Source: Patescibacteria group bacterium
Lineage (GTDB): Bacteria; Patescibacteriota; Microgenomatia; UBA1400; CG1-02-47-37
DNA length: 64,000 nucleotides
Direction of reading: 5' to 3'
Assembly: GCA_038065055.1 (NCBI GenBank)
Contig: JBBTRT010000005.1
Location: 2,706 to 66,705 of the forward strand
Part shown: piece by piece, positions 17,024-63,392 of the stretch
Numbering within the stretch: the stretch's first letter is position 1
Layout of the letters: every line of letters starts with the position of its first letter
Notes under the pieces: model-generated
What the model was told of the DNA's origin: nothing
The model's database searches: none
What the model saw: only the letters and a program-made list of their open reading frames with translations
Program-made: the position numbers and the translations under genes

Positions 17024-17886
17024 TATCTTAGAATTATACCAGAAATGGCTCCGGCCATAACCGCTAAATCCGCGGTTAACTGAAGGCCGGGCAAATAAAT
17101 TATGCCCCGCCAATTGGTGAGATAACGAAAGTGTTTAAAGATTGGCCAAAGCAAGTAAAGCAAAAATAACCACGGAAAAAATATGAAAACTAGGTAACGG
17201 CCAAAAACAGTGGCGATTTTAATTAAATGCGGCCGAAAGCGTGCCTGAATATCGCCTTGAGCATAGTGATACAGCTGGCGGAAAAACCGGGAAAAACCAG
17301 CCGCTTGCCGCCAAAAAACAATTGCTTTAGGGGCAGTGGCCATTTTACCTTTGGCTTTCAGTTTTTGGGCAAAAACCAGGTCTTCGCAATAATTTAAGTT
17401 GGCTGGATATTCGGCAACTCCTTTTCTGAAAGCGAGTGAGCGGGATGAAGGCAGATAGGTTTTTGGGTTAAATTTATCCGGCATAACGCAGACAAACAAG
17501 GAAGCATAGTATTGAAAAACAGTGTCTATTTTCGGTTGGTAGTAGCCGGCCACGGACAGCACGGTTTTATCTTTAAACGGCTTAGTTAAGCGTTCCAGCC
17601 AATGCTTATCTAAAATACAGCCGGCGTCGGTAATGGCAATGATTTCATTTTGAGCGGCTTTTATTCCCAAGTTTCTCCCAGTTGATCGATTAGTCCCCCT
17701 ATCACACACCAGGAGTGTGATAGGGTATTGCCGGAGTATTTCGAGCGTGCCATCGGTTGAACCGGCATCCACCACAATAATTTCACTTGGGGGCAAAGAT
17801 TGTTCAAAAAGTGAATTTAACAGCGGCTTGATCGTCTCCGCTTCATTTAATACCGTAACTATAAGGCTAACCTTAACGTCGGACAT
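17023..17886 (-). CDS. GT2 glycosyltransferase
   Basis: VSLIVTVLNEAETI...VVDAGSTDGT...AITDAGC. The start was trimmed to MSDVKVS. Confidence 0.8.
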   Translation of the reverse strand: MSDVKVSLIVTVLNEAETIKPLLNSLFEQSLPPSEIIVVDAGSTDGTLEILRQYPITLLVCDRGTNRSTGRNLGIKAAQNEIIAITDAGCILDKHWLERLTKPFKDKTVLSVAGYYQPKIDTVFQYYASLFVCVMPDKFNPKTYLPSSRSLAFRKGVAEYPANLNYCEDLVFAQKLKAKGKMATAPKAIVFWRQAAGFSRFFRQLYHYAQGDIQARFRPHLIKIATVFGRYLVFIFFPWLFLLYLLWPIFKHFRYLTNWRGIIYLPGLQLTADLAVMAGAISGIILR

Positions 17887-31626: not shown

Positions 31627-32094
31627 ATGATCAATGATCTTAATCCTGAACAGAAAGTTTCTTTAGAAAAAAAACAAAATGGAACCGAAACCATAAAATG
31701 GTGGGAACTTTCTTTACCTGGAGAAACTTTACTTGCCAATGGAGGGGAATTGCCGGAGATTGCCGTTCCAGGTCATGAATCTCCAGTAGAAACAAATTCC
31801 CAATATAATTCTTATACTCTTTTAACAGCTCCAGAGGAACAAGGAAAAATTAGAGTATTGGCTGCTTGTTTCACTGGTCATATCTATTCTGATAAGGATG
31901 TAGGTTATGATCTAACTAGTTTGCATAATGATATTAAGTCAGAGATGGAAAGAAGGGGGTTAAAAAATTATACACTTAGAGAAGTAGTAGCTATTCTAAA
32001 AGATCGCGAATCAGAACTGGAAAAAGTTGGGGTAGAAATAAAACAACTAACAGGCGGCAAAATGAGTGTCGATTATATAAAGATTGATGAATAA
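31627..32094 (+). CDS. hypothetical protein (155 aa), AT-rich island gene
   Basis: Clean ORF with noticeably lower GC than its neighbours. I recognise no family. Confidence 0.5.
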   Translation: MINDLNPEQKVSLEKKQNGTETIKWWELSLPGETLLANGGELPEIAVPGHESPVETNSQYNSYTLLTAPEEQGKIRVLAACFTGHIYSDKDVGYDLTSLHNDIKSEMERRGLKNYTLREVVAILKDRESELEKVGVEIKQLTGGKMSVDYIKIDE

Positions 32095-32098
32095 CTCC

Positions 32099-32121
32099 CC
32101 TACAAGGACGGACCTTGTAGG
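32099..32121. repeat. REP-like palindrome (CCTACAAGG ACGGA CCTTGTAGG), perfect 9-bp stem
   Basis: Read directly. It lies 4 nt after the stop of 31627-32094, between convergent genes. Confidence 0.8.
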
Positions 32122-44865: not shown

Positions 44866-45512
44866 AAGATTTTTTCCTTAAGCGGCTTAATGTGAGTAAA
44901 CGGCAAGCCGTGTTGAGCGTCACTGATAACGAAAAAGCGCGAATGGTTAATCAATTCATGGATTAACCGGCCGTCTTTAAGCGGGGTGTAGTGGTCGAAC
45001 TTTCCCCAGATAATCAGCGTCGGCGCCTTAACTTTAACCATATTTTTTTGTTGGTCTTCAGTTAAAATTATGGCCATGGTCTGCCTCATTTTTGGATTAG
45101 CGCGGTAATAATCAGTCGCGAGGAGTAAACGGTAAAGCAAAGATTTGGCTTTTTCCCGCAGGTAACCACGAAGCAATTTAGCCAGCGGGGTGATTATTTT
45201 CCGTTTCCAGCTTGGACGCCTAATTCCGGCGCTAGCAATAAGAATTAATTTTTTCACCCGCTCCGGATGGTTAGCGGCAAAATTAATGGCAATCTGGCCG
45301 CCAAAAGAATGGCCGGCAAGAAAAAACGGCGGTAATGTTTTGGTTTTCTGATAAAGCCAATCGGAAAAGTCAGCAATATTTCTGACTTTATCTTGGGGCA
45401 AACCAGGTAAAATTACAAATAAACCGGTAGATTTGAGTTTTTTAACCAATGGTTTCCAGCGGGACAAATCACTGCCCCAACCGTGAAGAATAACCAATGT
45501 CTCTGCCATCAA
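44844..45512 (-). CDS. alpha/beta hydrolase
   Basis: Nucleophile elbow AGHSFGG and LVILHGWGS. Confidence 0.75.
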   Translation of the reverse strand: MMAETLVILHGWGSDLSRWKPLVKKLKSTGLFVILPGLPQDKVRNIADFSDWLYQKTKTLPPFFLAGHSFGGQIAINFAANHPERVKKLILIASAGIRRPSWKRKIITPLAKLLRGYLREKAKSLLYRLLLATDYYRANPKMRQTMAIILTEDQQKNMVKVKAPTLIIWGKFDHYTPLKDGRLIHELINHSRFFVISDAQHGLPFTHIKPLKEKILWFIGSK

Positions 45513-46486
45513 CGATTAATTAATTTAATAATCGTACGGGCTAATTTGGCAGAATCGTGGCGCAACAAACTGCGTTTTAAGCTGTCGCTGGTTGGTTTTT
45601 GATAAGGAGTGTTGGCCAGCAATGGTTGGCGGATTACCCGGCTGTCTTCTCCCAAATTATCTTCCACCGAATATTCAGTTTGAGTTTTGTAGGCTTGTAA
45701 AATTACCGGCGGAATCGGTTGATTATTCACAATAATACTGTCAATCTTACGACCGCTGTATTTTTCCAGCTCTTTAATATGGTCCAGGGCGGTAAAATAA
45801 TTAGTTTGGCTATTTAAAGTCATCAGGTTAACAATGTAAACTAATTTGGCTTGGGAACGTTGAAGCGCTGACCGCGACCCCTTGACAACTAAACTGGCAA
45901 TCAAACTGTTAAACAAATCGCCCGGGGCAAAAATAACCAGTTCAGCGGTTTCGATGGCAACTTTTGCCTGAGGATTAATCAAGGCTTGAGGCAAAGTGTA
46001 AAGCTTGACAATCCGTTCATTTTTTTTCAGGCGGTGGACTTCGATTTTGTGTTCGGAAATAATGGTTTGGCCATCAGAATACTCGGCAGCCAGTTTGACC
46101 ATCTGCCGGGAAATAGGCAGAATCGTGCCTTTAAGGCGGAAAAGTTTGGAAATTTGTTCAACAGCGGCCGGTTCACTGCCTAAAATGTCTTCCAAGGCAG
46201 TTAAAAATAAGTTACCCAGGCTGTGGCCCTTAATCCCTTTGCCTTTTTCAAACCGGTAAGTAAAAAGTTTTTGGAATAAGCCGTTTTCTTTTGCCAAGGC
46301 CGCCAAGCACTGGCGGATATCGCCAACCGGTAAAAATCCAAATTCATCCCGCAGGCGGCCGGTTGACCCACCATCGTCAGTGACCGGCACAATGGCGGTT
46401 AAATCGACCGGGTAATTTTTTAAACCGGAAAGCAAGACAAAACTGCCGGTGCCGCCGCCAATGACCACAATTTTTTTTTGTTGCAC
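45509..46486 (-). CDS. YvcK/CofD-family protein (gluconeogenesis factor-like); GTG start
   Basis: VVIGGGTGSFVLLSGLK...VTDDGGSTGRLR. TGGTAAAAT (complement of 46494-46502) lies 7 nt upstream of the GTG. Confidence 0.85.
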   Translation of the reverse strand: MQQKKIVVIGGGTGSFVLLSGLKNYPVDLTAIVPVTDDGGSTGRLRDEFGFLPVGDIRQCLAALAKENGLFQKLFTYRFEKGKGIKGHSLGNLFLTALEDILGSEPAAVEQISKLFRLKGTILPISRQMVKLAAEYSDGQTIISEHKIEVHRLKKNERIVKLYTLPQALINPQAKVAIETAELVIFAPGDLFNSLIASLVVKGSRSALQRSQAKLVYIVNLMTLNSQTNYFTALDHIKELEKYSGRKIDSIIVNNQPIPPVILQAYKTQTEYSVEDNLGEDSRVIRQPLLANTPYQKPTSDSLKRSLLRHDSAKLARTIIKLINR

Positions 46487-46562
46487 AGCGTCTATTTTAC
46501 CATTTGATTGACTTTTAAGAAAATAGGAATAAACTACGAGTGTAATTTACAAAAATATAATT

Positions 46563-47030
46563 ATGAGCTTAAATGAAACCTCGGTTACGTATTCTGAAAA
46601 AATAAATCCTGTTATCAAGGCGGCGGCGGCTTTCGTTCCGGTCAGTGATTATTGGCAATTAAGATTAAGCACAGCAATTCCAACTGATGAAGTAGGGCAA
46701 ATTACCCGGGCAGTCAGGGCAACCAATGAATGGGCTCGGAATTTTGGCAAATCAGAAAAGATTAATCAGCCGATTAAGCCATCTTTAAATCCGATCGTGA
46801 TCGCTTCAAGAAAATTTCTCCAGCGTATCCCTTTGGAGGAATATTTACCGGCCCGGCATGAAGTAATTGTAGAGGCAATTGCATCCAGTAACAAAAGGGT
46901 GGCTTATCTTGAAGAATCAATTGGTTATGATGCTGAACTAGATAAAGCTGAATGTGAAGGGATGGCTCTTTCAAGTGAACTTAGTATGACTACAGCAGCA
47001 ATAAAGGCAGTCAACCAGCCTCCGGCTTGA
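46563..47030 (+). CDS. hypothetical protein (155 aa)
   Basis: Clean ORF. I recognise no family. Confidence 0.5.
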   Translation: MSLNETSVTYSEKINPVIKAAAAFVPVSDYWQLRLSTAIPTDEVGQITRAVRATNEWARNFGKSEKINQPIKPSLNPIVIASRKFLQRIPLEEYLPARHEVIVEAIASSNKRVAYLEESIGYDAELDKAECEGMALSSELSMTTAAIKAVNQPPA

Positions 47031-47035
47031 TTCAA

Positions 47036-47057
47036 CCTGCAGGGCTGTCCTCGTAGG
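47036..47057. repeat. REP-like palindrome, degenerate (CCTGCAGGG CTGT CCTCGTAGG), immediately 5' of the RayT-like gene promoter
   Basis: Read directly. It abuts TATAGT (47060-47065). Confidence 0.7.
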
Positions 47058-47219
47058 TGTATAGTTAAAGTAATGCCGGCAAAAAATAGTCTTAAGAATT
47101 ATTCCCCTGAGGCTTACTACCATGTTTATAATCGCGGAGTTGCCAAACAACCTATTTTTCTTGACGAGCAAGATTTTAAAACCTTTTTATCTTACCTTAA
47201 ATTTTACTTGACTACTCCC

Positions 47220-47246
47220 AACCTTCAAGGACTGTCCTTGAAGGTT
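47220..47246. repeat. REP-like palindrome, perfect 13-bp arms (AACCTTCAAGGAC T GTCCTTGAAGGTT), inside the RayT-like ORF (encodes NLQGLSLKV)
   Basis: Read directly. Confidence 0.85.
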
Positions 47247-47525
47247 GCCCCCTCAAGAAAACTAAAAAACTATACCGATCAAATTAAGCTGCTTGCCTAT
47301 TGTTTAATGCCAAACCACTTTCATTTTTTTATTTTTCAAAAAGAAGCAAATTCAATGACTGAATTCATTAGCTCGATAAGTACAAAATATTCAATGTATT
47401 TTAACAAAAAATACAAATGCGTCGGCCATGTTTTCCAAGGAAGATATAAAGCATTAACGGTAATAAATGAGAATCAGTTTATTTATCTGTCCAAATATAT
47501 CCACCAAAATCCCTTAGATATTTTA

Positions 47526-47548
47526 CCTACAGGGACTGTCCTTGAAGG
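47526..47548. repeat. REP-like palindrome (CCTACAGGGACTGTCCTTGAAGG) inside the RayT-like ORF (encodes PTGTVLEG)
   Basis: Read directly. It is identical over 26 nt to the copy at 47737-47762. Confidence 0.85.
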
Positions 47549-47736
47549 TTATAAATTCTCCAGCTATCAAAATTATCTAGGTTTGTATAATCAGGCTTGG
47601 ATAAATAAGGATGAAATTTTATGCTATTTCAATCAAAATCCAACTAAACAATCTTATAAAGTTTTTGTCGAAGAATCAGATGAAAGAGATTTACCTATGA
47701 TTAAAAATATTACCTTGGACTTCGAATAATAATGCG

Positions 47737-47759
47737 CCTACAGGGACTGTCCTTGAAGG
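47737..47759. repeat. REP-like palindrome (CCTACAGGGACTGTCCTTGAAGG) 3' of the RayT-like gene; it overlaps the last codons and the stop of murA on the other strand
   Basis: Read directly. MurA ends ...NNLQGQSL* and its TAG is the complement of 47738-47740. Confidence 0.85.
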
Positions 47760-49000
47760 TTATTTATTTTAGCACCAAGGGCCTGCAAATGGCCGATAAA
47801 GTTTTCGTAACCCCGGTTAAGATGCTCCACTCCGGTCAACACAGTTTCCCCCCGGGCACACAAGCCGGCTAAAACCAAAGTGGCGCCGGCGCGGATATCC
47901 GGAATCGTTAATTTTTGCCCCTGAAGCTTGGCCGGACCAATAATTTTAATGGATCCGGGCATCTGACTAATCTTGGCACCCATGGCTAGTAGCAGAGGCA
48001 CAAACTGAAACCGGTGAGGAAAAATAGTATCCGTGACCTGTGACTGGCCCTGAAACTGAGTAGCGAGAACTGACCATAGTGGCTGCCAATCAGTCATAAA
48101 GCCTGGGTGCGGAGCGGTCTTAATGTTAACCGCACGTAACGGTTGATGATAGTAAAAACGAATCCCCTCGCTTAAAACTTTAAAACCCGCGCCAATTTCG
48201 GTTAATTTGGTTAAAAAAGCGGTTAAATCTTGTTCCCGGGCATGCTTGACCAGAATATTTCCTTGAGTAATCAAAGCGGCAATGGCATAGGAGACTGCTT
48301 CATTGCGATCCGGCATTACCGAGTAACTGGCTGAACCTAAGTCTTTAACGCCGTTAATAATGATCGTCCGGGGCGCTTGCCTGGTTATTTTGGCGCCCAT
48401 TTGAGTTAAAAAAGCAATTAAGTCATCGACTTCCGGTTCCAAAGCGCAATTTTTAAGGATGGTTTTCCCTCGGGCCAAGACAGCGGCCATAATTAAAGTT
48501 TCTGTGCCGGTGTGGGTAGGCTCGGGAAAAGTATAATTTCCGCCTTTTAAAACAGGACAAGTGGCGTAAATTAATTGGTTTTTGAGCTTAATTTTGGCGC
48601 CTAAGGCCTGCAGTCCGGCAAAGTGCCAGTTTAAGCGGCGCTCCCCGATTTGGTCGCCGCCGGGCAAAGGCATGATTGCCTGCTGAAACCGGGCCAAAAG
48701 CGGAGCTAAAAATAAACTGGAAGCCCGCGAGGCCTGACCCAAACTTTGCGGCACAGTAAAAGACTGAAGGTTATCTGCCTGAAGTTTAAAATAGTTAGCG
48801 TCAGCCTTAACTTGGCCGCCTAGCTGAAGAATAATTTCTTTGACCAACTCAACATCGGCAATGCGGCAAACATTGGTTAAGTTAACTTCCCTATGGCTCA
48901 ACAACGAAGCAATCATCAGTTTAAAAGCAGAGTTTTTGGCACCGCTTAAACTGACCGTGCCGTTTAAACGTTGGCCGCCTTGAATAGTAATTTCAGCCAT
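47738..49000 (-). CDS. murA: UDP-N-acetylglucosamine 1-carboxyvinyltransferase
   Basis: MAEITIQGGQRLNGTVSLSGAKNSAFKLMIASLL; 420 aa. Confidence 0.9.
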   Translation of the reverse strand: MAEITIQGGQRLNGTVSLSGAKNSAFKLMIASLLSHREVNLTNVCRIADVELVKEIILQLGGQVKADANYFKLQADNLQSFTVPQSLGQASRASSLFLAPLLARFQQAIMPLPGGDQIGERRLNWHFAGLQALGAKIKLKNQLIYATCPVLKGGNYTFPEPTHTGTETLIMAAVLARGKTILKNCALEPEVDDLIAFLTQMGAKITRQAPRTIIINGVKDLGSASYSVMPDRNEAVSYAIAALITQGNILVKHAREQDLTAFLTKLTEIGAGFKVLSEGIRFYYHQPLRAVNIKTAPHPGFMTDWQPLWSVLATQFQGQSQVTDTIFPHRFQFVPLLLAMGAKISQMPGSIKIIGPAKLQGQKLTIPDIRAGATLVLAGLCARGETVLTGVEHLNRGYENFIGHLQALGAKINNLQGQSL

Positions 49001-49784: not shown

Positions 49785-51163
49785 AGCCAGTTATTGCCGG
49801 CGCCAAGGGTAATTAAGATATCGCCGGAACGGCAATAGTGTTTGATAAAGGCTAAAGTAGCGGCTTTACCAGGGCAATAATAAACTTGGCGGTGGTGTTT
49901 AGCAACCGAGTTGCTAAAACTTTTACTGGTTAAGCCTAAGTTGTCTTTTTCCCGGGCAGAAGCAAAAATGTCGTTGATCACGACCAGGTCGGCCTGGCTA
50001 AAACTTTGACTAAACTCAGTTAACAAAGCTTTGGTACGGGAATAAGTGTGTGACTGGAAAATAGGAATCAAACGGCGGTCAGGAAACCATTCCCGGGCGG
50101 CTTGCAGAACGGCTTTAATTTCAGTCGGGTGATGAGCATAATCATCATAAAGACTAATTTTCTTAACCTCACTAATTAATTCAAACCGACGCTTAACCCC
50201 GGTAAAAGTTTTTATACCAGCTTGCAATTTTTGGGTTGAGGCCCCTAAATTATAGGCCGTTACTATGGCGGCAGTAGCATTTAAAAGATTGTAATTGCCG
50301 GGCAGAGTTAAAATCATTTCCGGCCAAGTTACGCCTTTGACTTTAAGGGTAAAAAACTGTTTTTTATCGGCCAAATGATGGCTAATAATCTGCCAATCGG
50401 CCAAAGGAGAAAAACCATAAGTGATCACCGGGCGGTTTAAACGGCTGATAAATTGCTTGCAGCGGGGATTATCGATATTAATAATAATAAAGCCATTTTT
50501 AGGAACTGGCTGTAAAAACTTAATAAACGAGTCAAAAACTGAATCTAAAGACGGATAAACATCCGGGTGATCGTATTCCAGATTAGTAATTACTGCCATA
50601 TAAGGAGTTAAATAATGAAACCGGGGAGTTAAATTTTTTAGCGGGTCGGTGATGAATTCATCGGCTTCCGCCACAAAATACGGGGAACGGGAATTAAAGC
50701 GGCCAGGGGCCGGTAAGGAAAAAATCGCGCCGGCGCCAACCGCATAACTGGGCTGAAAGCCGGCCGCAGTTAACAGATGAGCAATCAGGGCCGAAACAGT
50801 TGATTTGCCGCCAACGCCGCTAACCGCCACGACCTGTTTACCGCTGGAAAATAGACCGAGCGCCTGAGCATGGCTTAAAACCGGAATATTTTTAGCTTGA
50901 GCGGCCACCACTTCCGGATTATCACTCCCCTGGTGAGCGCCGGTATAAATAACTAAATCACAATTACGGGGCAAATTTTTTGGGGAAAAACCCAGCTTAA
51001 CTTTCAACTTCCTGGTTTTTAAAACCGCATCGGTAGGAAACACTTCAGCGGTGTCGCTGCCGGAGACTTTTTTACCTAAATCTAAAGCGCACAAAGCCAG
51101 GGCAGTCATACCGACGCCTTTAATCCCGGTAAAATGAATGGTTTTAAGTTTTTTTAAATTCAC
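49739..51163 (-). CDS. murC: UDP-N-acetylmuramate--L-alanine ligase
   Basis: IHFTGIKGVGMTALA and P-loop SGVGGKSTVSA. Confidence 0.9.
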   Translation of the reverse strand: MNLKKLKTIHFTGIKGVGMTALALCALDLGKKVSGSDTAEVFPTDAVLKTRKLKVKLGFSPKNLPRNCDLVIYTGAHQGSDNPEVVAAQAKNIPVLSHAQALGLFSSGKQVVAVSGVGGKSTVSALIAHLLTAAGFQPSYAVGAGAIFSLPAPGRFNSRSPYFVAEADEFITDPLKNLTPRFHYLTPYMAVITNLEYDHPDVYPSLDSVFDSFIKFLQPVPKNGFIIINIDNPRCKQFISRLNRPVITYGFSPLADWQIISHHLADKKQFFTLKVKGVTWPEMILTLPGNYNLLNATAAIVTAYNLGASTQKLQAGIKTFTGVKRRFELISEVKKISLYDDYAHHPTEIKAVLQAAREWFPDRRLIPIFQSHTYSRTKALLTEFSQSFSQADLVVINDIFASAREKDNLGLTSKSFSNSVAKHHRQVYYCPGKAATLAFIKHYCRSGDILITLGAGNNWLWHKEILWTLSKIKS

Positions 51164-52238
51164 CGGCTGATAATGATTGATAAAGAACTAAACCGCTAGC
51201 CAGCAAGGCTTTAGCACCTAAAGTGACGCCCGGCATCACCGAAGAGTTAATTCCCAATTGGCTTCCTTTTGCCAAAATAGCGCCTAGCTTTGACTTGCCG
51301 GGAAGAACCTCTTTTTTGTCAAACCGCATATTGGCCAGCCGAGCGCCGGAGCCTAAATTGCTCCCCCCTTCGATAATGGAATCACCCACATAATTGGTGT
51401 GGAAAAAATTATTCGGGCCAACGTAACTCCGGGCAATTTCCGTGTAATATCCGACCGTAGTACCGGATTCAATGATAGAATCCCGAATCAAACAGTGGTG
51501 GCCGATGATAACTTTGGGGCCAATATAGGAATTAATAATCTGGGCGCCGGGGTAAATCTTGGCGGTTTTATCGATGATAGATTTACCGGTTAATAAACCG
51601 GCAGTTAAATCCAAAATTTGCCAAGGATATTTTAGTTGATAGAATTTGCCGGCGGCTTTAACCAGAAGCGAATTGGTTAATTGATTTAAACCGGCTTCGT
51701 AATCAGCTTTAAGCACGGCAATAAATTCTTCGATTTTAGGAAAATAGTCTAAGACGATTTTTAACCACTCGCTCGGTTCTTTTCCCTCGGCAGGCTTTTC
51801 GATGACCTGCAGGGACTGTCCCTGCAGGCTGAAAAAACCGCCGGTGAGACCGGGATGGCTCTTGATACCGGTAAAAATTACTTTATCAGGAGTAGTTTTT
51901 ATTGCTCGTGAAAATTGCTGAATAATTTTAGGGTCAATCCAGTCATCTCCGTTAACTACTACGGTCGGGCCTACAAGGTCCAACCTTGCAGATAAGACGG
52001 CGCCGGCCATGCCGTTGGGTGCGGGTTGGACGACTATCTTGGCTTTGGGAAAAAGTTTAGCAACTGCAGTTTTGTCTTTAGGATTAACCACGATAATTAT
52101 TTGGCTGGGTTTTAAACCCTGACAATTAGCCACAACATGCTCCAGCAAAGTCTTGCCTAAAAACGGCAATAAAGGCTTACTGGTAACAAGCGGCTGAAAC
52201 CGTTTACCGATGCCGGCGGCTAAAACTAGTAATTGCAT
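51144..52238 (-). CDS. sugar-phosphate nucleotidyltransferase with a C-terminal left-handed beta-helix (GlmU-like)
   Basis: LVLAAGIGKRFQPLVTSKPLLPF N-terminal signature, VIEKP motif and C-terminal hexapeptide-repeat region (IGPKVIIGHHCLIRDSIIESGTTVG...). Confidence 0.75.
   Translation of the reverse strand: MQLLVLAAGIGKRFQPLVTSKPLLPFLGKTLLEHVVANCQGLKPSQIIIVVNPKDKTAVAKLFPKAKIVVQPAPNGMAGAVLSARLDLVGPTVVVNGDDWIDPKIIQQFSRAIKTTPDKVIFTGIKSHPGLTGGFFSLQGQSLQVIEKPAEGKEPSEWLKIVLDYFPKIEEFIAVLKADYEAGLNQLTNSLLVKAAGKFYQLKYPWQILDLTAGLLTGKSIIDKTAKIYPGAQIINSYIGPKVIIGHHCLIRDSIIESGTTVGYYTEIARSYVGPNNFFHTNYVGDSIIEGGSNLGSGARLANMRFDKKEVLPGKSKLGAILAKGSQLGINSSVMPGVTLGAKALLASGLVLYQSLSAGEFKKT
51806..51828. repeat. REP-like palindrome, perfect (CCTGCAGGGAC T GTCCCTGCAGG), in frame inside the GlmU-like gene (encodes SLQGQSLQV)
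   Basis: Read directly. Both arms contain CCTGCAGG. Confidence 0.85.
51970..51992. repeat. possible degenerate REP-like copy (CCTACAAGG TCCAA CCTTGCAGA) in the same gene
   Basis: 7 of 9 stem positions can pair. It resembles the 32099 copy. Confidence 0.35.
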
Positions 52239-63041: not shown

Positions 63042-63080
63042 ATATGTAATACTAACAAATTGAATTAATGAAGTCTATCA

Positions 63081-63111
63081 GTTAGCCTGCGAGGAGAGTC
63101 CTCTTAGGCTA
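63081..63111. repeat. REP-like palindrome (TTAGCCTGCGAGGA GAG TCCTCTTAGGCTAA), degenerate
   Basis: Read directly. Confidence 0.7.
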
Positions 63112-63137
63112 ATAATTACTTCTATCTACATCAAGTA

Positions 63138-63162
63138 CCTGCAAGGAGAGTCCTCGCAGAGG
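63138..63162. repeat. REP-like palindrome (CCTGCAAGGA GAG TCCTCGCAGAGG), degenerate with a 1-nt bulge
   Basis: Read directly. Confidence 0.6.
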
Positions 63163-63168
63163 TTCACA

Positions 63169-63202
63169 ACTACGAGGTTGGACCTTGTAGGTTACTTGTA
63201 GG
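63169..63202. repeat. REP-like palindrome (ACTACGAGG TTGGA CCTTGTAGG) plus a duplicated right half-site CTTGTAGG
   Basis: Read directly. Confidence 0.6.
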
Positions 63203-63392
63203 CTTATTTTCTTAAACTAATTCCTAACATGAGGAGGAGGTTGAAGTCGAGGAGCCAGGCGGCGGTGAAGATGATGAGTTTAATCGGACGGGTGGCAGAT
63301 TTGGAAGACAAATACAACTTAACCGGGTAGGCGAAAACCAGCAAGCCGCAAATTAGGGCCGAAGTGGAAAGAAGAATCAGCTTTTAATTATA

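Follow-up and report, generated by a model that had tools for sequence, protein, structure and literature searches.

The question raised by this locus is why a transposase gene should carry, within its own reading frame, copies of the palindrome that flanks it. The window, a stretch of 64,000 nucleotides from a Patescibacteria group bacterium (assembly GCA_038065055.1, contig JBBTRT010000005.1, positions 2,706 to 66,705 of the forward strand), contains a single gene (47073..47729, + strand) for a Y1 HUH transposase of 218 amino acids (aa) resembling the RAYTs, the tyrosine transposases associated with repetitive extragenic palindromic (REP) sequences. RAYTs are textbook domesticated transposases whose in vivo benefit and mode of action are unclear. 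REP/RAYT systems (REPtrons) have been described for E. coli TnpA_REP/RayT and the Pseudomonas RAYTs, with their REP, REPIN and BIME sequences (Nunvar 2010, PMC2817692; Bertels & Rainey 2011, PMC3116915; Messing 2012, PMC3479197; Bertels 2017, PMC5581495), and the described REPs flank RAYT genes or overlap the gene ends (5′ov/3′ov) (PMC3733652). REPs elsewhere are known as elements of 3′ untranslated regions (3′-UTRs), and intragenic REPs are also known (PMC3733652). The initial annotation regarded a RAYT gene that had absorbed its own hairpins as undescribed, and the literature searched, including PMC3733652 and the HUH phylogenomics of PMC6006769, indeed described neither cognate REPs within a RAYT open reading frame (ORF) nor any REP/RAYT system from the candidate phyla radiation. 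The in-frame cognate REPs are what is new here, while the kinship to REP/RAYT systems by fold, motifs and flanking repeats is known. The best explanation, held with appreciable doubt, is a Patescibacteria REP/RAYT system in which the internal cognate hairpins probably act as recombination joints.

The RAYT-like Y1 HUH identity of the 218-aa protein is supported by motifs, profiles and fold. The RayT/IS200-type motifs named in the initial annotation are all present, namely YHVYNRG (aa 16-22), the HUH motif H82-F83-H84, FQGRYK (aa 121-126) and YIHQNP with the catalytic Tyr142, and H82, H84, Y142 and N146 (YIHxNP) are invariant in an alignment of 71 homologues. That reading also hinged on a profile match to Y1 HUH transposases, and Pfam PF01797 (Y1_Tnp) matches aa 69-146 with 46.4 bits against a cut-off of 23; the N-terminal strand falls outside this alignment because a loop, site 1 below, interrupts it. 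The NCBIfam model NF047646 (REP_Tyr_transpos) scores 40.6 bits, under its equivalog cut-off of 80, and the protein therefore belongs to a divergent, Patescibacteria-specific branch, outside the equivalogs of the proteobacterial enzymes. In an AlphaFold model from 71 sequences (pLDDT 78.9, pTM 0.81), Y142 is on helix 133-149. The top fold match of this model in the PDB is 4er8_A, E. coli TnpA_REP bound to a REP hairpin (E = 1.3e-5, target-normalised TM score 0.63), with the IS608, ISDra2 and IS200 TnpA structures ranking after it (PDB 2a6o, 2xo6, 2f4f; E >= 1.2e-3). A PDB search with the protein sequence returned spurious matches only, and the link to this fold family came from the fold search. 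Homologues of the same length number 6495, mostly from Ca. Beckwithbacteria and other Patescibacteria; where named at all, they are called Candidatus Beckwithbacteria or Patescibacteria transposases, and "RayT" once.

Four copies of the palindrome are associated with the gene, where the initial annotation had placed them, and their stabilities are given here as DNA folding energies with z-scores. Site 1 (47219..47247) is a perfect palindrome of 14+1+14 nt that lies in frame and folds at -13.4 kcal/mol (z -7.2); its arms are 14 bp long and not 13 bp as first noted. Site 2 (47526..47552), also in frame, and the 3′ copy (47737..47763), which begins 7 nt past the RAYT stop codon, are imperfect, with energies of -4 to -5 kcal/mol (z -1.4 to -2.4). 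These two are direct repeats, an identity noticed before and extending over 27 nt instead of 26, and each contains one A/A mismatch and one G·T pair. The upstream copy, CCTGCAGGG-CTGTCCTCGTAGG (47036..47057), is decayed by a 1-nt deletion and mismatches (-4.3 kcal/mol, z -1.8), is the weakest of the four, and was missed by a consensus search allowing up to 3 mismatches. Its position is intact in close relatives, at -38 to -45, with a good copy in the relatives L087 and L088. Across the window, strand-matches to the palindrome consensus number 10, where 0.01 would be expected by chance. Any two REP copies are mutually complementary, and the whole unit folds with its 5′ and 3′ copies paired.

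Both internal copies encode surface segments of the protein, with the peptides read earlier from the sequence. Site 1 encodes N50-V58 (NLQGLSLKV), between helix 32-46 and strand 71-78, a loop that is disordered in the AlphaFold model (pLDDT <50 for aa 52-58). Site 2 encodes P152-G159 (PTGTVLEG), the loop directly after the catalytic-Tyr helix, so that the two loops lie on either side of the HUH-Tyr core. No other loops of the family vary as much in length (from 0 to about 25 residues), and both are short or absent in the minimal homologues from Saccharibacteria. The palindrome-encoded peptides are therefore insertions relative to those homologues. In the homologue alignment, the columns corresponding to aa 47-58 and 150-160 of the window protein contain partial tandem duplications in some sequences (PDLQNLQGP, DLQGQSLKSLKI, TRLDLEGLEG), which are consistent with slippage at hairpins.

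The arrangement is not peculiar to this gene. Homologous loci were collected from GTDB species-representative genomes (80 loci) together with closer metagenome relatives, and 65 were analysed for copy positions. The palindrome recurs at four places per locus, at about -40, at about +150 (site 1), at about +455 to +510 (site 2), and directly past the stop codon. Its sequence is genome-specific, as illustrated by CCTACGAGGAGAGTCCTCGTAGG, ACTTAGAGGATCAACCTCTAAGT, ACCTTCAGGGTCTCACCCTGAAGGT and ATTGCAGGGTCTGACCCTGCAAT. Both flanking copies are present in 37 of the 65 loci: all four sites are occupied in 9, the flanks and site 2 in 10, the flanks and site 1 in 6, and the flanks only in 12. Site 1 is filled in 18 loci altogether, each time by a copy that matches the flanking REP of its own genome, and site 2 in 23. 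The lineages with this arrangement include Beckwith-, Woese-, Davies-, Sacchari- and Zambryskibacteria, and none of the non-Patescibacteria homologues in the sample has an internal copy. The four-site arrangement is an ancient, conserved trait of the family, a result that goes beyond the initial annotation, as does the coincidence of the hairpins with the borders of exchanged gene segments described below.

The internal copies follow the flanking copies of their own genome as the palindrome changes. On average, an internal copy differs from the flank of its own genome at 0.83 of 17 nt, compared with 7.8 of 17 nt for the flanks of other genomes. In an unbiased form of this comparison, the flanking 17-mer is matched within the RAYT coding sequence of the same genome, with up to 3 mismatches, in 33 of 51 genomes, whereas such matches occur in only 92 of 2550 cross-genome comparisons (3.6%), all of them among close relatives. 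This shows concerted evolution: within a genome, internal and flanking copies change together. The earlier view of a gene that has absorbed its own hairpins is upheld by this tracking and by the status of the peptides as insertions. Several genomes have a pair of diverged RAYT paralogues that differ in REP type (L213 and L220 in GCA_018826225.1, L021/L026, L016/L031 and L028/L030).

Since REPs are repeats and all of the data are metagenome-assembled, assemblers could have collapsed or chimerised sequences at these short repeats and thereby faked both the internal copies and the mosaics discussed below. This is scarcely credible. The intact 218-aa ORF, identical in protein sequence and with the same REP copies and context, is found on 12 independent contigs from groundwater metagenomes, covering several samples, and the architecture recurs with different palindromes in more than 30 unrelated assemblies. 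Moreover, a 23-nt repeat is below the final k-mers of common assemblers, and both cassette variants of one exchanged pair (L215/L216) are present in several independent assemblies.

A second possibility is that the peptides are what is conserved, with LQGxSLK and PTGTVLEG maintained for protein function and their DNA near-palindromic by chance. The motif LQG-x-SLK is indeed common to many Beckwithbacteria homologues. Against this, the one palindrome is read at site 2 in all three frames in different lineages, giving unrelated peptides: PTGTVLEG or PTRTLLVD in one frame, AFRESPGR, PYKDNPRR or ACKDGPCR in another, and LQGDSLQ, SQGQALR or VEGQTLD in the remaining one. The peptides shift whenever the REP of the genome shifts, the sequence also recurs in the non-coding DNA to either side of the gene, and the loops are absent in minimal homologues. 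The initial annotation would have abandoned its reading had homologues kept the same residues without palindromic DNA; similar residues are always accompanied by the palindrome, and the residues differ where the palindrome or its frame differs. A protein-driven coincidence thus has a negligible probability.

The stems themselves covary. Among 85 distinct copies, 87.9% of stem cells are paired, a percentage that is inflated by the selection of these copies through a hairpin search, although the compensatory changes between genomes are not. Changes on both sides of the stem occupy 173 cells, against 58±6 in shuffles, and all covariation measures drop when the partner is slid by 1-3 columns. Watson-Crick pairing reaches 86-89% in internal copies and 82-85% in flanking copies. 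If the hairpins were maintained as RNA, an excess of G·U on the sense strand would be their signature; it was sought in the internal copies and not found, the counts of G·T versus A·C being 2 versus 8 at site 1 and 9 versus 8 at site 2. The lack of a preference for G·T over A·C therefore speaks against selection on mRNA structure. Three frames at site 2, covarying stems and the absence of this preference together show that the internal copies are DNA-level elements and not protein motifs: what is conserved is the palindrome as DNA, rather than the peptide or a structure of the mRNA.

These counts bear directly on the proposal that the in-frame hairpins autoregulate the mRNA, by limiting translation, recruiting RNase III or binding the protein, with DNA palindromy secondary. 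The copies are transcribed within the ORF, the site-1 hairpin is very stable, REPs in 3′-UTRs are known (PMC3733652), and the region has no terminator-like site other than the 3′ copy, a hairpin with a T-rich tail behind it. RNA structure should, however, tolerate G·U and not A·C, and the orientation of the asymmetric loop flips freely among sites and genomes. Furthermore, Rfam has no match in 46400-48000, and the REP-bounded exchange of DNA would be left unexplained. Regulation at the mRNA level is accordingly regarded as improbable. On the DNA side, the upstream copy ends 15 nt before the ATG and abuts a TATAGT hexamer resembling a -10 box, next to which it could serve as an operator. A promoter scan found nothing above background here, and TATAGT as a -10 element is a reading from sequence only.

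The palindrome is also dispersed beyond RAYT genes, which invites a neutral account: REPs would land, or be gene-converted, everywhere, the RAYT loops would be merely tolerant, homogenisation would be passive, and the REP borders of exchanged segments would reflect microhomology. A scan of metagenome contigs with CCTNCARGGACWGTCCYTGNAGG identified at least 120 loci (L093-L212), 15 of them with a RAYT gene among the matches listed; at least 110 sites are distant from RAYT genes. Absence of the palindrome elsewhere in the genome had been named as fatal to the original reading, and the scan found copies outside RAYT genes in such contigs. Among the matches listed, 55% of the RAYT-distant sites are in-frame parts of stop-to-stop ORFs, which are of many kinds and measure between 100 and 1101 aa; random positions reach 87%. 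The sites are therefore enriched between genes, though most are intragenic. The dispersed in-frame copies encode peptides of the LQGQSLK, PSRTVLEG or CKDSPCR type, often at orthologous sites in related contigs, and the REPs of Beckwithbacteria thus have an intragenic habit like that of the Rickettsia palindromic elements (RPEs).

The neutral account draws on this in-frame dispersal, on the copies held by a GlmU-like gene and the murA C-terminus in the window, on the many homologues that lack one or both internal copies, and on the disorder or variability of the loops. The density of copies tells against it. The 608 kb around the homologous genes contain 21 copies of the genome-specific palindrome (about 1 per 29 kb), compared with about 2 copies inside the 0.66-kb RAYT gene (about 3 per kb). 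This roughly 90-fold enrichment falls on the same pair of loops in lineages as far apart as Beckwith-, Davies-, Sacchari- and Zambryskibacteria. In addition, the internal copies are paired as well as the flanking ones, which is unexpected for neutral relics under coding constraint. A neutral by-product is thus judged possible but rather unlikely.

Evidence that the hairpins are also places of exchange came from comparing the three REP-bounded parts of the gene for identity among 120 homologues. A strict mosaic was defined by at most 5% mismatch on one side of a border and at least 20% on the other. A maximum chi-square breakpoint scan over all pairs was dominated by the faster-evolving C-terminal third of the protein, with a peak at aa 170-180; because it was swamped by this rate heterogeneity, the strict mosaics alone were relied on. 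Two pairs show REP-bounded modules replaced by diverged versions in otherwise identical backgrounds.

In the pair L214/L213 (P0083/P0105), both loci lie between PPDK and PGI. Apart from two isolated differences, their DNA is essentially the same between -740 and +432, as well as past the 3′ edge of the downstream REP. In between, from a point about 20 nt ahead of the site-2 REP to the end of the downstream REP, identity is only 50-65%. L213 has one REP type (A) upstream and another (B, CCTACAGGGTTTCACCYTGAAGG) at site 2 and downstream. In the pair L216/L215 (P0100/P0094), both loci lie between POR and a CoA ligase with identical flanks, and identity falls to 63-70% over a segment that starts at the 5′ edge of the upstream REP and closes with the 3′ edge of the site-2 REP; the next 45 nt contain 4 more mismatches. 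The site-2 REP of L215 resembles a hybrid of the two types. Since GCA_018826225.1 has two RAYT paralogues, exchange donors can reside in the same genome, and paralogues with their own REP types are possible candidate donors for the cassette exchanges. A further rearrangement is seen in the relative L092 (10001-10660), whose RAYT gene shares its slot (cofD / glmS-murA) with that of the window, yet has the reverse orientation with respect to the genes around it. This inversion is consistent with recombination between the flanking palindromes.

Hairpins that act as recombination joints would connect these observations. The two in-frame REPs occupy insertion-tolerant surface loops that bracket the catalytic HUH-Tyr core, and they split the gene into three modules (N-terminal, catalytic core and C-terminal); all four copies would be substrates of one process. 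Exchange might proceed by one of two routes. In the first, the RAYT would nick and strand-transfer at the hairpins, by analogy to E. coli TnpA_REP, which nicks and strand-transfers REP single-stranded DNA in vitro (PMC3479197). In the second, the hairpins would stall replication and induce template switching or gene conversion. With hairpins as recombination joints, the four copies would therefore be homogenised, and the enzyme would evolve modularly while staying matched with its REP.

Several observations count against recombination joints as the explanation, in addition to the selection of the copies used for the stem statistics. In the window, the upstream, site-2 and 3′ copies are imperfect and fold weakly, and outside the RAYT gene only 5 copies of mixed subtype occur, far below classical REPs. 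Many homologues lack one or both internal copies, which are thus not required for the protein. Clean REP-bounded exchanges number only two, and their junctions can be placed only within 0-45 nt of a REP. In a third mosaic, L219/L220, the diverged stretch runs from +300 to +890, and neither border coincides with a REP. An exchange bounded by site 1 was sought among the pairs and none was found, the candidate L217/L218 (P0028/P0035) being diverged throughout without a sharp mosaic. The sequences involved are metagenome assemblies, and L213 is a single short contig.

A stronger version of the recombination reading would make the RAYT a self-editing modular gene, whose product swaps or deletes the REP-bounded modules of its own coding sequence at the in-frame REPs. 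This is doubtful. It would allow the specificity and activity of the enzyme to change in single steps along with the sequence of its REP. The C-terminal third of the protein forms the module bounded by site 2 and the 3′ copy, and recombination between these two copies would leave a protein of 163 aa that ends just past the catalytic helix. Within the self-editing version, this module would correspond in position to the C-terminal tail of E. coli TnpA_REP, which is auto-inhibitory and touches the guide bases (PMC3479197).

The system as a whole resembles classical REP/RAYT systems in several respects. The protein shares the Y1 HUH fold, the HUH motif and the Tyr in a Y-x3-NP helix, with 4ER8 as the best structural match, and a genome-specific short palindrome lies on both sides of the gene, with further copies, of mixed subtype, elsewhere in the window. 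As in those systems, the gene is single-copy in the window and syntenic in close relatives, and some genomes have two RAYTs with their own REP types. Unlike classical systems, the Patescibacteria gene has two cognate REPs in frame at conserved loops. The palindromes are near-perfect, with no separate unpaired 5′ GTAG guide evident: G[TAC]AGG lies within the stem, as its outer part in each arm, and covariation with the paired base is seen at its second position (pair 5-21). The protein is also longer (218 versus 165 aa) and falls under the NCBIfam equivalog cut-off. A further difference from classical REPs is the low copy number, with more than half of the dispersed copies intragenic; RAYT groups 1 and 4 likewise have few REPs, with a reported 12-14 occurrences (PMC5581495).

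Relatives of a different kind are the IS200/IS605 TnpA enzymes (IS608, ISDra2) of peel-and-paste transposition, which have the same Y1 HUH fold and act on subterminal hairpins in single-stranded DNA, as the RAYT may do here; the segment from hairpin to hairpin is the unit moved. Unlike these elements, the gene has one copy in 64 kb, no tnpB among its neighbours (cofD, a 155-aa ORF and murA), and the same palindrome at both ends in place of distinct left and right ends. The hairpins also lie inside the transposase ORF, and homologous modules are replaced in place, with no insertion at new sites. A parallel in layout is offered by the HUH Rep genes phiX174 gene A and pT181 repC, in which the origin site or hairpin that is nicked by the product lies within the coding sequence. 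Those are single rolling-circle origins of a phage and a plasmid, whereas here two in-frame and two flanking copies belong to a dispersed chromosomal repeat, and the outcome is segment exchange and not replication initiation.

Among the RPEs, RPE-1 elements measure roughly 100-150 bp. Like intragenic REPs and RPEs (reviewed in PMC3733652), the palindromes described here are carried in frame by open genes and provide extra or altered loop peptides, in the window in the GlmU-like gene, at the murA C-terminus and in the RAYT gene. Unlike RPEs, for which no cognate transposase is identified, the elements are 23-27 nt long, the presumed mobilising enzyme is identified, and no target is more densely occupied than the gene for it. 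If the hairpins do act as recombination joints, those inside the gene would be a natural record of where the system acts on DNA in uncultured cells, and the replacement of modules at hairpins would be a concrete route for the co-evolution of enzyme and repeat. In-frame REPs would then also be a source of protein-loop variation in compact Patescibacteria genomes, and a trap for annotation and homology-based alignment.

In its genomic setting, the RAYT gene lies within the dcw/mur cluster, with palindromes on both sides, the 5′ one decayed, in keeping with the initial annotation of a REPtron-like unit in the dcw cluster. On one side are cofD (45509-46486, - strand) and a 155-aa ORF (46563-47030), and on the other is murA (47738-49000, - strand). 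The position between cofD and murA is kept in relatives of at least 73% identity and not at 56-62% identity; the murA context is shared by none of the 80 GTDB species-representative loci, and only the closer metagenome relatives have it. The 3′ REP overlaps the end of murA and gives MurA its last 7 codons and stop codon, so that the C-terminus reads ...KINNLQGQSL* with the stop from CTGTAG of the REP, whereas relatives end in ...KIKRI* or ...KIRRIN*. The upstream REP starts 5 nt past the stop of the 155-aa ORF. This ORF has no Pfam or NCBIfam match and is found only in same-species contigs, being absent from the relatives L087, L088 and L092. A mobile unit of ORF plus REP was considered, since another 155-aa ORF (31627-32094) also has a REP past its stop, at a distance of 4-5 nt in both cases, but the two ORFs proved unrelated.

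Elsewhere in the window, a perfect palindrome at 51806..51828 (-12.1 kcal/mol, z -6.0) lies in the GlmU-like gene (51144-52238, - strand). It is in frame and encodes SLQGQSLQV right before the EKP motif of this GlmU-like sugar-1-phosphate nucleotidyltransferase, and it aligns with a native beta-hairpin of solved homologues, adding no length relative to PDB 5z09. The GlmU orthologue of L092 has a copy at the same codons with covarying bases (GGA...TCC to GGT...ACC, changing Ser to Thr), and that of L087 has a decayed copy. At 32099..32121, 4 nt past the stop codon of ORF 31627-32094, there is a REP of a sister subtype with loop GGACGGACC (-8.8 kcal/mol, z -4.2). Another RAYT lineage (L217/L218) is accompanied by this type of loop, and the L092 GlmU copy has a near-identical one, GGTCCGACC. 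Further REP-like hairpins form a cluster at 63085..63192, in the intergenic gap 63042-63392; the three belong to other subtypes, two to GGAGAGTCC and one to GGTTGGACC, and their arrangement resembles bacterial interspersed mosaic elements. The GGAGAGTCC subtype accompanies other RAYT lineages (L007, L048), and its presence in the cluster suggests a second RAYT or a past cassette exchange in this genome. Finally, a second, unrelated palindrome family occupies 1896-1915, 2181-2200 and 17700-17722, with CTAACACACCCGGGGTGTTA twice and TATCACACACCAGGAGTGTGATA once, and CACAC...GTGTG hairpins akin to it flank RAYT homologues in other Patescibacteria (L082, L067, L068).

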